IMG/VR virus record: IMGVR_UViG_2651869692_000004
Location: 1 to 46,543 of that record
DNA from: a virus
Lineage: Duplodnaviria; Heunggongvirae; Uroviricota; Caudoviricetes
Strand: one strand, 5' to 3'
DNA length: 46,543 nt
In this document: positions 12,001 to 18,000 of the stretch, piece by piece
Numbering within the stretch: the stretch's first letter is position 1
Layout of the letters: each line of letters begins with the position of its first letter
Program-made: the position numbers

Positions 12001-15000
12001 AAACATCCAATCAAATTTAATGGTTTGCTTTGTGCGGGGAACTATAACAATGTTTCTAGCTTGGTGCTGTATGAATTAGTGAATTAGTAGGGAATATATC
12101 CACACATTGATTAACACAAAAATATTTCAGATATTAAATGTAACTCAAAGGATGAGTAATAATGGTTGTGTAGCGTATAACAGGATGCTGAGGTAGTATT
12201 AAACAATGAATAAATCTGATTGACAAGCACCAGATAATACTGCGGATCAATCATTAGACATGAACGCCACTAGTTACTGAGAGTAACTAATGGCGTTTTG
12301 TTTATAGTTAAGATGTTTTTTTAAAACATCAGGGGGGCTCTACTTGTCTTTTTTAATATGTTCAATCTCATCATTAAGACATTTATCTATTTTTTTTATT
12401 AACACATTAATTTCTTCGGTGTTTTGGAGTTGAGTTGTCTTAGAAACAAAAACTCGAATAAAGAATTTAACATAGTGATAGGGTTGAAGTACATCGTTAT
12501 ACTTACATAAATCATTTATTGTATACTTGCCGCCTGTTTCTTTTTTTATTATTTTAGCTTGACTTGTATCGATATCTTTAAAGTTATCTTCAATCTGAAA
12601 ATCAAGAACCCATTCATCTCCTTTTAAATTATCCTCAATGATTTTGTTGATTTTCTTAGATATATTTTGTTTATATTCTTTGTATCTGTTGTCGGAAATG
12701 TTAACATTAGAAAACGTGTGTTTTTTTTCATATATTTTTTTCCAAACATTTCTATCAACAATATCTTGAATTATAGCTTGAGAATTTTTATCTAATGTGT
12801 TTTTAAGAGTGTTTTCTAAAAACGTTTTGTCTGGGTTTTCACGATAAAAGTGTTTGATGGACTCAATGAGAGTGTTTTTAGATTTTAAAGAGACAACATC
12901 ATCAGTTTTTTTTCTAGAACACGCTTTGTTAAGCATCGCAGATAGTGCACGATTGGTCTTATGAAAATAAACTTGACTATAAAGCCCACTTCTTGCATTG
13001 GCAAATTCTAGTATTGAATCCATACCACTTTCTTTATATGCCAGGTAAACACTATTTTCAACTTTCACAGGAATAAATGACATTAATAATCGTCCATAAT
13101 CATAAATCCCATATTTAACGCCGGAGAAGTAGCTATCTCTAAGTAGGTAGTCCATTCTGTCCGCATCTATAGGTGAAGATGATATGATTGAACCTAATAA
13201 AGGATATACATTTACTCCCTCAATGTTATTTTTAAAATCATATCTTTTATCAACAATTTTTATAATGCTTTCTGGATTAATAGCCGCTATGTTTTCTTTA
13301 TAGACATCGTCGTCATTTGATTTATCTTGGGCTTCATTTTTTAATTCTTCAATAATTTCTTTAATAAAAATACATGATACTTGTTCGTGGGTTAACTTGT
13401 CATTATCACTTAAAGATATAATCTTATCGTATTGTTTATTTCCTTCAGTTTTGCATTTTTCTTTGAAATCTTTTACGGATATTGCAAAACTATCGAATTG
13501 GTGGGCAAGTGGGCCATGCCCAACATCGTGTAACAATGCTGCAATACGTAACTCCTGTATAAGACTTGAAGGCATTTTTTTTATATCTAAATATAGATCA
13601 ATGCCCATATTTTTTCGGTCATAAATTAATGCATTCAAATTTATATTTTTCAAAATCTCATACGATAAATGCATTACACCGACAGAGTGTTCAAAGCGAG
13701 AGTGCATTGCAGAAGGAAATACTTTATATAGAAACGTGTTCTGCCTGATATCTCGTAGTCGTTGGAATAAAGGATGGTCAATTATCTTTTTTTCTAGCTT
13801 AGTTATTCGAATCACTCCATGTATGGGATCTAAAAACTTCCCCAGAAGTAAGTCTTCAAAGTTCTCAAGTTTGTTTTTGTTTGTCATGAGGCTTTCCTTT
13901 TGCTGTAGTTATAATACGAAATTTAAATAGTAATGATGTTTATAGTTTCAATGTGTTATCTAATGGTTAACACATTGTGATGTAGCATATCAATATGGAT
14001 TCATATGTTCAATTGGTCTGTGGAGTTTAATTATGAATAAGATTGATTCTGGTAATACTTTGTAGTTTAAGCTAGAGGCGGGATTCGTGATGTTCAAATC
14101 AGTATGTAATGGAGGTTGTGCATTAGTACTTGCTGCTGGAAATTAAAAATAAAGTTGCAAGTAATCGACGTTTTCCGAGAGGAGGATGTAAGCATCGCTG
14201 ACCAAAAAGTATCAACGATGCCTGTTTTGTTTTAACTACAAATTAATTAAATTGCATCTGCAAACTCTGTGATTTTTCGCTCAAGTATGATTGATGAGTT
14301 GCTGTTGTCGATTTTTTTATTTTCATGATTACGAATAGCCAATGACTCATTAAAGTCTTTTGCGACTGCTGTCTCAATAAATTCAATTTCTGAATCAGAG
14401 TGTTTTTTAACAGCTTCTTTGATCTCATCCAGAGTAACATAGAAAAACTCTTTTCTACGATTTACAAGATTGACTCTCTTTTTATCGAAGACATCATGTA
14501 GTTTTTTTTCTAATGATGGAGCGTCCTCCGAATAAATCATGGCATGCACATCAAAAATAAAAGGAACAGATGCATCACCAAGCTCATTTACACGGTCTTG
14601 TGGATCAAGACGTCGTGTCATGCCTATTTTATAAACATTCTCCCCAAAAGAACCTATGTTCGAAATAATATAAACATGACCTTGTTTGGTTTGTTGTGCC
14701 ATGGATAATGCTCTTTGATGCTTTGATTCAGCCTGCGACAAACTCTGTTCTAGTTCGGCAATGCGATTTTCGAGGCGCTGCTTCATGTCACCAGTAACTT
14801 TTTCCATTTCCTTTCTTGCAGCTTCAATTGCTTTTTTATAACGGCGCTCTTCTGCCTCTGCGTCTTGCATGGCCTTTTCTATTTCTCGTTGTGCACGCTC
14901 CTCCTCTCTCATTTGTGCCCTTATTTCTGCCTGTTCTTCTTTTTCTTTCTGTTTTTGCTCACGATATTCATGGGTAAGCCACAACTCCTCAAGTTTTTTA

Positions 15001-18000
15001 TTAAGGTATTTAGTATTTATATATATGTGATTTTGCTCGTTTAGTTTATTTATGGCCTCAAATGCCTTTGTGATGCGTTCTTCCATTTTAGTGATATTTT
15101 TCCACGTGCAATTACTAATTGCAGCATCACATTCATTATTAAATGCTCTAGTAGTTAGCCTAATATTTCTGTCTGTCATTTTTTTACCCTCTGCTCGAGA
15201 GCCTTCAACAGTCCATTGGGTTGTGCAATATACTGCACCAGAGTGGGTTTTATCCCGCAGCATTAATTTCTGTTCATCCCTGATGGATTTTATTTTGTTT
15301 TTAAATTGCTCTGAATCTTCAAAATTAAAATGAGGTTCGTAAAATCCTAGTTCGGCTAGTTCAACATCTTCTGAATAAATAGAAATTTGCTTTACTAGCT
15401 TATCATATATTTCTTTCTTCTCTTTATAAGTTCTTCTTAGTTCTTGGATTTGTTTATTGATACCATCCATTTTTTCAATGGTGTTTGTTAGTTCATTATT
15501 GGCATTTTCTTTTACTTTTTGGGACTCTTCTTTTATAATGGAGCATTCTTGCTCTGTTTTCTCAATAAGCTTCTTACATTCCTCTTCCACATTAAAATAA
15601 TCTGCAAAGCGAGATTTGTATTCTTCATTTTTTTGATTGCTATCACTTAATTCTAATTGTATTTTTTTGATGCGTTTGATTGCAGCTATATATAGAACAA
15701 GAACAACCAATAAAAATATGATTGCAAGTAATAGTGGAGTTTGAGTCATTCGTGCTATTCCTTACGGACAATTTAAGACGTTTTGTATTAAATCCTGTTC
15801 AATGTGTATGCGGGTGATTGCTACCGCTTACAATCTTCATAATTATCAGTTAGATAGACTCGCTAGTAAATAATTTCATTTTTTGCAATATTCTTATTGA
15901 ATATTTCAATTTATGAAATGAACTCTTTATCCTTTCAAGGCGAAAGGTTTCTTCTTCGGAAATATTTGCTCTCGTGTGACGTATAAAGGCCTTTGATTTT
16001 TAAAAAACAGTAGGGAATAATATAGTTACTGTCGGCCTGAACACCCGGCGGTGGGGTTGCGCTAAACGGGGACGTTTATGCGCACATACAATCTAAACTC
16101 TCTTCTCCCTTCACAGATGCAGAAATGCACCTGCGATTTTTTGCATCCAACGTTTGACCTCTGCGGAGGTGAAGCGTGAACCTACCACAAGATGGCATCA
16201 AATTACATCGCGGCAACTTCACCGCTATCGGCCAGCAGATCCAGCCTTATCTGGAGGACGGAAAATGCTTTCGCATGGTGCTTAAACCGTGGCGTGAGAA
16301 ACGCAGTCTTTCCCAGAATGCACTCAGCCACATGTGGTACAGCGAAATCAGTGAATACCTCATCAGCAGGGGTAAAACGTTCGCTACTCCAGCTTGGGTA
16401 AAAGATGCTCTCAAACACACATATCTCGGTTATGAAACCAAAGACCTGGTTGATGTCGTAACCGGTGATATCACCACTATCCAGTCGTTACGCCATACCT
16501 CCGATCTTGATACCGGAGAGATGTATGTCTTCCTGTGTAAGGTTGAAGCCTGGGCGGTGAATATTGGCTGCCACCTGACTATTCCGCAGAGCTGCGAGTT
16601 CCAGCTGCTCCGCGACAAGCAGGAGGCGTAATGGCTACACCGCTTATTCGTGTCATGAACGGACACATCTACAGAGTACCAGATCGTCGTAAGCGTAAAC
16701 CGGAGCTGAAGCCTTCCGAAATACCAACACTGCTCGGATATACCGCCAGCCTGGTTGATAAAAAATGGTTGCGACTGGCAGCAAGGAGGAATCATGGCTG
16801 ATTTGAGAAAAGCAGCGCGTAGTCGGGAATGCCAGGTAAGAATCCCTGGCGTATGTAATGGCAACCCTGAAACGTCTGTACTGGCACATATCCGGCTGAC
16901 TGGATTGTGCGGCACCGGTACCAAACCGCCAGACCTGATTGCCACCATTGCATGTTCTGCCTGCCACGACGAAATCGACCGCCGCACACATTTTGTCGAT
17001 GCTGCATATGCAAAAGAATGCGCGCTGGAAGGTATGGCGAGAACACAGGTTATCTGGCTGAAAGAGGGGGTTATTAAGGCGTGAATACCTACAGCATCAC
17101 ATTACCCTGGCCTCCGAGCAATAATCGCTATTACCGCCATAATCGCGGGCGCACGCACGTCAGCGCAGAGGGGCAGGCATACCGCGATAACGTCGCCCGA
17201 ATCATTAAAAACGCAATGCTGGATATCGGCCTGGCTATGCCTGTGAAAATCCGCATTGAGTGCCACATGCCGGATCGCCGTCGCCGTGACCTGGATAATA
17301 TTCTGAAAGCGCCGCTGGATGCGCTGACGCATGCGGGGTTGCTAATGGACGATGAGCAGTTTGATGAAATCAATATTGTGCGCGGTCAGCTCGTTCCTGG
17401 TGAGCGGCTGGGGATAAAAATCACAGAACTGGAGTGCGCATGAATAACCACTATTTACAGTTTGTGCGTGAGCTGCTCATTATCGCTACCGCCGATTTGA
17501 TTGGGGCAACAAAAGGTCAGCTTGAAGCCTGGCAGGAGAATGCCATGTTCGATACAGGGCGTTACAGGCGAAAAAAAATCCGGTACCGCGATGAAGTGAC
17601 TGGAAAAATGATAACGCGGGATAATCCACCAATCCCGGGAAAGCAATCGCTGGCGAAGGTGACGTCAATTCCTCTGGTCAGTCCGATTGAGTTTTCGACA
17701 TCATCGTGGCGGCGGGCTGTTCTGTCTCTTGAAGAACATCATAAAGCCTGGTTGTTGTGGTGTTACAGCGGGAGTATTTGTTGGGAATATCAGATCGCGA
17801 TAACACAGTGGGCGTGGAATGAATTTAATACTCAATCCGGTACCAGAAAAATTGCAGGGAAAACGCAGGAACGCCTGAAAAAATTAATCTGGCTGGCGGC
17901 GCAGGCAGTAAAAGCAGAACTTTTTGGTGGGGAAGGTTATGAATACAAGGAGCTGGCATTACTGGTGGGAGTGACAACTAAAAACTGGTCCAAAACATTT

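Follow-up and report, generated by a model that had tools for sequence, protein, structure and literature searches.

The stretch of DNA analysed here, referred to as the window, comprises 46,543 nucleotides (positions 1 to 46,543 of the IMG/VR virus record IMGVR_UViG_2651869692_000004) and represents a lambdoid prophage of Escherichia coli, as judged from the annotation of the corresponding region of strain TB354 and from Pfam scans. The gene under study lies antisense between ren and ninB and, by its sequence, is a near-identical copy of SNIPE (PD-lambda-1), a system that has been known since 2022 and whose mechanism was resolved in 2026. We read the gene layout of the prophage from the annotation of the TB354 region, which is 99.9% identical, in combination with the Pfam scans. 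The left part carries int, xis, exo/bet/gam, kil, cI, cro, a YdaT-domain gene in the cII position, O, P and ren. An AT-rich island follows ren and is succeeded by ninB, ninE, ybcO, rusA, Q, three transfer RNA (tRNA) genes and a NanS-p-type esterase gene, after which the right part continues with lysis genes, terminase, head and tail genes including those for the tape measure protein and J, and lom. The flanks have a guanine plus cytosine (GC) content of about 50%, while the island at approximately 12000-16000 reaches 30-37% GC, as anticipated by an earlier reading made without database searches (hereafter the sequence-only reading), which had placed the gene in an AT-rich prophage defence hotspot. 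The gene, its parts and its upstream region are as follows.

14247..15749, minus strand: SNIPE / PD-lambda-1 coding sequence, 500 amino acids plus stop, ATG start (open reading frame listing)
15678..15737, minus strand: transmembrane (TM) helix, residues 5-24 (hydropathy maximum)
15159..15677, minus strand: N-terminal cytoplasmic, highly charged helical region, residues 25-197 (40% charged, 3% Pro+Gly)
14994..15158, minus strand: DUF4041, residues 198-252 (PF13250, E = 1.2e-19, 70.4 bits versus a cut-off of 27)
14682..14993, minus strand: long charged alpha-helical linker after DUF4041, residues 253-356 (45% charged, 1% Pro+Gly)
14403..14681, minus strand: GIY-YIG-superfamily nuclease domain (T5orf172/MUG113), residues 357-449 (Pfam)
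15750..16031, minus strand: upstream region corresponding to the 282-nucleotide native-promoter part of the functional pKVS45-PD-lambda-1 clone (279/282 identical to phage PhiR26_1)

The protein was identified by comparison with defence-system models and with the characterized PD-lambda-1 proteins. The PADLOC model for PD-Lambda-1, PDLC03976, matches it with E = 5e-198 and spans positions 1-484 of 491 model positions, and a second model, PDLC03977, matches with E = 1.8e-194. PD-lambda-1 emerged when E. coli fosmid libraries were subjected to functional selection against lambda-vir (Vassallo 2022, Nat Microbiol, PMC9519451); it originates from ECOR26 contig QOXL01000020 (protein RCP76574.1, gene of 1503 nucleotides) and was cloned alone, on a fragment reaching from 62 nucleotides downstream to 282 nucleotides upstream of the gene (PMC9519451). 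It has since been renamed SNIPE, and its mechanism has been dissected (Saxton 2026, Nature, PMC13190303). The window protein is identical in 494 of 500 residues to the annotated PD-lambda-1 of phage PhiR26_1 (PV340555.1; XSB42081.1), the induced phage of ECOR26, in which the gene is situated antisense between ren and the nin genes, and thus in the same slot and orientation as in the window. The six substitutions relative to the ECOR26 protein (Q77L, K120R, I480S, L489P, I493T and T494P) are all located outside the TM helix, DUF4041 and the nuclease domain, two of them (Q77L and K120R) in the region of residues 25-197. At the nucleotide level 1475 of the 1503 positions of the coding sequence are identical to PhiR26_1, and of the 28 differences, 22 leave the amino acid unchanged. 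The complete unit that had been cloned as functional (62 nucleotides downstream, coding sequence and 282 nucleotides upstream) is found in the window at 97.6% identity. The two loci also differ in their surroundings: the window carries a 2.18-kb module with an HD-domain gene inserted just downstream of SNIPE, it lacks the block of 1.85 kb with Rha that is located after SNIPE in PhiR26_1, and its prophage possesses a different tape measure protein variant.

This correspondence extends to individual residues and to the published constructs. The SNIPE paper refers to nine residues by number, and each of them is found at the matching position here (E414, E223, N250, L253, W257 and, in the linker after DUF4041, E264, K305, I308 and T319), among them the catalytic E414 in the context APSLEKKLHD, encoded by a GAA codon at 14508-14510. 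The published cloning and mutagenesis primers map to the window, deviating from it only by a few silent differences and by the changes designed into them; primers oDS92/93 for E414A, for example, match apart from the designed GAA-to-GCT change at that codon. Length and domain coordinates likewise agree with those of PD-lambda-1, for which HHpred placed DUF4041 at residues 197-252 and T5orf172 at 357-448 (PMC9519451). The window protein corresponds to WP_001516217.1, its exact sequence occurs on 210 contigs, and newer RefSeq labels for copies read 'SNIPE associated domain-containing protein'. The sequence-only reading had been aware of no well-characterized defence system with exactly this architecture, and the novelty implied by this cannot be upheld: the architecture is exactly that of PD-lambda-1 (PMC9519451), that is SNIPE (PMC13190303), for which both a PADLOC model and a RefSeq label exist.

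Concerning the architecture itself, the same reading had fared well. The TM helix, charged helical stretches, DUF4041 and C-terminal T5orf172 domain that it had described were recovered in place by hydropathy, composition and Pfam, and the profile search that it had proposed for T5orf172/GIY-YIG homology returned matches to PF10544 (residues 357-449, E = 6.9e-17) and to MUG113, PF13455 (residues 373-449, E = 7e-19), all Pfam matches including that to DUF4041 being well over their gathering cut-offs. Residues 5-24 (PLLLAIIFLLVVLVLYIAAI) contain the protein's most hydrophobic 19-residue windows (mean of 3.4 on the Kyte-Doolittle scale), and the KRIKK directly after them agrees with an N-out/C-in topology under the positive-inside rule. 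On the basis of hydropathy and of TM residues identical to those of the topology-tested protein, SNIPE of the window thus has an N-terminal single-pass anchor. These residues are exactly those deleted in the published deltaTM construct, and its primer oDS47, which fuses MTQT to KRIKK, shows 0 mismatches to the window. The DUF4041 segment carries a net charge of +3. For the charged regions we obtained compositional matches only, to the coiled coils of SMC, JetC and MukB, and a search of NCBIfam returned no named family (an SMC-related compositional match with E = 1.4e-4 was far below the cut-off). A sequence search of the PDB gave coiled-coil noise only (best E = 0.077; Tom20, CnrR) and hence no solved SNIPE relative; an AlphaFold3 model of the 99%-identical SNIPE has already been published.

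The upstream region is conserved to a similar degree, with the proximal ~235 nucleotides of the 282-nucleotide fragment showing no difference to PhiR26_1. A consensus scan proposed a candidate sigma-70 site (TTTACT-17-GATAAT) at 15870-15842. Scanning of 11900-16250 yielded 17 promoter-like sites versus 18 expected in shuffled sequence and three terminator-like sites versus 2.2 expected. Since these counts do not exceed the shuffled expectation, the promoter at 15870-15842 is to be taken as a suggestion only.

For the 99%-identical ECOR26 protein, a detailed mechanism has been worked out. SNIPE is inserted into the inner membrane by an N-out single-pass anchor with DUF4041 and the nuclease domain in the cytoplasm, as established by PhoA/LacZ fusions, microscopy and fractionation, and its defence is abolished either by E414A or by deletion of DUF4041 (PMC13190303). 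Both DNA binding and the contact with the tape measure protein are functions of DUF4041; with substitutions in DUF4041 such as E223K and W257R, a particular tape measure protein is bound more strongly, and the tape measure protein is also where escape mutations are located (PMC13190303). The N-terminal region is regarded in the published model as a variable adapter associating with the mannose permease ManYZ, and proximity labelling placed SNIPE near ManYZ before and during infection as well as near the lambda tape measure protein gpH (PMC13190303). Protection against lambda-like phages is largely ManYZ-dependent, while a weaker ManYZ-independent protection extends to most siphoviruses and not to myoviruses or podoviruses (PMC13190303).

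The sequence-only reading had proposed an abortive-infection or defence effector, and the published experiments separate the two. If the gene were an abortive-infection effector, a membrane-tethered nuclease would be released or activated upon infection, degrade the host DNA and kill the cell. An effector with this capacity is indeed present, as SNIPE without its TM helix is highly toxic, binds the nucleoid and causes double-strand breaks in host DNA in an E414-dependent manner (PMC13190303). Hence, it is the membrane anchoring that spares the host chromosome. However, infected cells carrying the 99%-identical protein neither lyse nor die, and their cultures grow at high multiplicity of infection, unlike those with the abortive-infection control PD-lambda-3, so that SNIPE has been classified as a direct, non-abortive defence (PMC13190303). 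Furthermore, phage DNA followed by radiolabelling and ParB tracking is cleaved while it is being injected, SNIPE leaves an induced resident prophage untouched, and it becomes no more toxic when host DNA is forced to the membrane (PMC13190303). We therefore retain the membrane-tethered defence effector and regard its abortive action as extremely unlikely.

T5orf172 and GIY-YIG domains are also known from phage homing endonucleases, and the gene resides in an AT-rich mosaic island, as a selfish gene of this kind without a role in defence might. The window protein, however, combines a membrane anchor with DUF4041 and harbors no homing-endonuclease DNA-binding module recognisable by Pfam, the same slot is filled by the same gene in different prophages in the manner of ordinary cargo, and defence has been demonstrated experimentally for a near-identical protein. 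A homing-endonuclease-like gene devoid of a defence role thus has next to no claim on this locus.

For the window allele itself we obtained sequence identity, domains, conserved functional residues and a conserved promoter fragment, and on this footing we infer that it behaves like the 99%-identical ECOR26 protein. We consider it highly probable, at roughly 93%, that the window gene is a single-gene, constitutively expressed, prophage-borne direct-defence SNIPE system that acts as in the published mechanism. Accordingly to that mechanism, the N-terminal region would associate with ManYZ, the inner-membrane route of lambda-like phages; DUF4041 would then bind the DNA and the tape measure protein of an incoming siphovirus, and the GIY-YIG domain with its catalytic E414 would cut the phage genome while it is being injected. 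The cell would survive, the resident prophage would remain unaffected on induction, and SNIPE would serve here as a lysogen-expressed moron providing a superinfection barrier against other siphoviruses. As the allele is wild-type at the DUF4041 and range residues, the published wild-type range is predicted.

Several points weigh against this interpretation. The mechanistic experiments were conducted with the ECOR26 allele, from which the window allele differs at the six positions given above, and since two of these substitutions lie in the region thought to contact ManYZ, its specificity could differ quantitatively. Several related copies are disrupted by insertion sequences (IS), so the SNIPE gene is not always maintained. 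In addition, published work has yet to settle how the nuclease is kept auto-inhibited at the membrane and how the roles of ManYZ and the tape measure protein compare (PMC13190303). One may thus ask if the window allele is inactive, shifted in its phage range by the six substitutions, or silent in this prophage. Six amino acid differences from the tested protein and the IS-disrupted copies in other genomes would speak for it, as would the finding that single DUF4041 substitutions changed the range strongly (PMC13190303). On the other hand, the reading frame is intact, the nucleotide differences are mostly synonymous, and none of the substitutions falls within the TM helix, DUF4041 or the GIY-YIG domain. 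C-terminal GFP and FLAG fusions of SNIPE stay functional (PMC13190303), so the C-terminal tail tolerates change, the exact protein occurs on the 210 contigs mentioned above, and the proximal promoter region of the window is identical to that of PhiR26_1. An impaired, shifted or silent allele therefore appears improbable to us.

Copies of the gene in other genomes are not uniformly intact. IS1 interrupts SNIPE in TB354 (31431-33494 of its locus) and in Evo1/CP137705, and IS5 does so in LP-26-E1-261. In HH45 and EC96 the gene aligns over 1502 and not 1503 nucleotides, which suggests that it is frameshifted there. The IS-disrupted and probable frameshift copies thus point to repeated inactivation of SNIPE in nature.

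Immediately downstream of SNIPE lies the second gene of the island, which the sequence-only reading had recognised as dNTPase-like and which we could assign to the SAMHD1 family.

12340..13887, minus strand: HD gene, SAMHD1/EF1143-family deoxynucleoside triphosphate (dNTP) triphosphohydrolase homologue, 515 amino acids (Pfam HD, E = 8e-7)

It is carried by an inserted block at 12006-14184, the 2.18-kb module that separates ren from the 3' end of SNIPE and is replaced by 168 nucleotides in PhiR26_1. In a phmmer search of the PDB the protein matched 2hek (E = 5e-30), EF1143 (2o6i, E = 1e-26) and human SAMHD1 (E = 4e-26, residues 19-430); it is alignable with human SAMHD1 and EF1143 over about 410 residues and shares their metal-binding H..HD..D motifs, here HSRFEHS, LLHDVGHGP and DADRMDYLLRD. 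With this HD core and these motifs it is, on sequence grounds, a putative dNTPase of the SAMHD1/EF1143 type. It belongs to PHROG 35128 (E = 4.9e-137), annotated as 'unknown function', and we found no experimental test of this HD family in the literature. Two more specific assignments were rejected. A Dgt-type dGTPase is not indicated, as the protein fails TIGR01353 (23.4 bits versus a cut-off of 152.35) and matches the PADLOC dGTPase model with only E = 8.9e-4 and 16.7 bits. A Clover system is not indicated either, as the island contains no CloB-like nucleotidyltransferase and the neighbours are ren and SNIPE. With the dNTP-depletion defences dGTPase (Tal 2022), Clover CloA and the octameric Vdg, the HD gene has the HD fold and the prophage or defence-hotspot setting in common, and by this analogy it is plausibly a nucleotide-depletion defence gene.

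We further considered if SNIPE and the adjacent HD gene constitute a mutually dependent two-gene defence system, a link that the sequence-only reading had proposed to examine. Among 5426 complete E. coli genomes, SNIPE is present in 131 and the HD gene in 21, the latter falling into two allele classes of ~99% and ~90% identity; all 21 HD copies adjoin SNIPE in the same orientation, 359 nucleotides downstream, and a consensus scan found no terminator-like site between the two genes on their strand. This association is one-sided, however, with 110 of the 131 SNIPE-positive genomes lacking the HD gene. SNIPE is fully active when cloned alone on the fragment described above, the original ECOR26/PhiR26_1 locus is devoid of the HD gene, and the HD gene resides on a discrete inserted block. 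We also examined the contexts of HD homologues with 44-76% identity in six genera. In Proteus the homologue lies in a defence island and adjoins a Cap15-like gene, in Enterobacter it adjoins HigBA and a type VI secretion system Hcp/Tlde1 pair, in Yersinia it occupies the V/S moron slot of a P2-like prophage, in Vibrio cholerae it is part of an integron-like cassette array full of toxin-antitoxin pairs, and in Klebsiella and Serratia it is found at chromosomal sites. A DUF4041/T5orf172 neighbour was encountered in none of these six contexts. Since SNIPE is active alone and the HD gene is mostly absent from SNIPE genomes, we rejected mutual dependence, which we judge very improbable, and the HD gene finds no support as a functional requirement for SNIPE. 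We instead interpret the island as one hotspot that has stacked up two cargo modules, each a single gene and independent of the other.

The identical island with both genes also occurs in strain 2 HS-C (locus 17847-26050), within a degraded DLP12-like prophage remnant at tRNA-Arg. Its immediate neighbours there are a truncated bet at one end and ybcN/ninE/rusA/quuD at the other; O, P and ren are absent, and the island therefore persists in defective prophages after loss of the replication genes.

[quoted passage not shown]

36180..38759, plus strand: tape measure protein, with a variant segment of residues 301-400 at nucleotides 37080-37379

The protein is 82% identical to lambda gpH overall and 35% identical in residues 301-400. 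In this segment it is 70% identical to PhiR68_2, with which it also shares the length of 859 amino acids and a six-residue insertion. With residues 300-400 as query, PhiR12 and PhiR5_1 are 97.6% identical over the first 85 of 101 query residues, and Stx2a-converting phages are about 91% identical with 84% of the query aligned. PhiR26_1, the original SNIPE carrier, possesses a lambda-identical tape measure protein, in contrast to the window prophage. The PhiR68.2 segment has been linked to ManYZ-independent entry and to only modest SNIPE sensitivity (PMC13190303); the PhiR12 and PhiR5 phages, and hence their sensitivity to SNIPE, are not mentioned in the text of that paper. Because its tape measure variant is of the PhiR68.2 type, which is tied to weak SNIPE sensitivity, the carrier phage may be partly insensitive to the SNIPE that it carries.

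Taken further, the HD gene might be a dNTPase defence that works with SNIPE as a two-layer prophage cassette, in a carrier phage that is itself partly immune to SNIPE. If this were true, SNIPE would cut DNA at entry and the HD dNTPase would starve those genomes that get through. We hold this extended scenario to be rather unlikely.

Some further features of the prophage were observed. The cII position (9431-9976, plus strand) encodes a YdaT_toxin-domain protein (PF06254, E = 9e-30) and not a lambda-type CII. The late-regulatory region at 17434-21520 has a layout typical of Stx-converting phages, with Q followed by the three tRNA genes (18340-18589; anticodons CAT, TCG and TCT) and the NanS-p-type SASA esterase gene (19670-21520), and the position of stxAB holds only a TerB-family pseudogene and a DUF3927 open reading frame. 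The prophage hence looks like a relative of Stx phages that lacks stx. Immediately downstream of the cI-like repressor gene (8376-9104), in the position of lambda rexAB, lies an open reading frame of 317 amino acids (7361-8314, minus strand), for which PADLOC gives a full-length match to its candidate defence family PDC-S42 (E = 3.4e-86). A Pfam scan found no domain in it, and RefSeq names it 'LAPAL motif-containing putative phage structural protein'. This gene may be a third defence cargo gene of the prophage.

Compared to other defences acting at the cell envelope, SNIPE shares with Zorya and Kiwa the membrane localisation and the action at or near genome injection, and both are named as conceptual relatives in the SNIPE paper (PMC13190303). 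Unlike SNIPE, Zorya (with the MotAB-like ZorAB) and Kiwa (KwaAB) are multi-gene systems of unrelated proteins, and the PADLOC search revealed no homology to either beyond a compositional ZorA match (E = 0.079). A second likeness exists to superinfection-exclusion proteins of prophages such as HK97 gp15, which are also lysogen-expressed morons and block DNA entry of siphoviruses via the route of tape measure and inner-membrane protein. Proteins of the HK97 gp15 type do so without a nuclease, whereas SNIPE degrades the DNA with its GIY-YIG domain.

For the SNIPE gene itself, the window brings no new biology. It makes modest additions, namely a second natural SNIPE allele, defined by the six substitutions and present on 210 contigs, in the usual prophage slot; the presence of an uncharacterised HD gene of the SAMHD1 family in this ren/ninB moron slot together with SNIPE; and a prophage that carries SNIPE and has, in its own tape measure protein, a variant segment linked to reduced SNIPE sensitivity. 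The principle that SNIPE represents is that location distinguishes self from non-self: the nuclease is bound to the membrane and cuts phage DNA while it is being injected.

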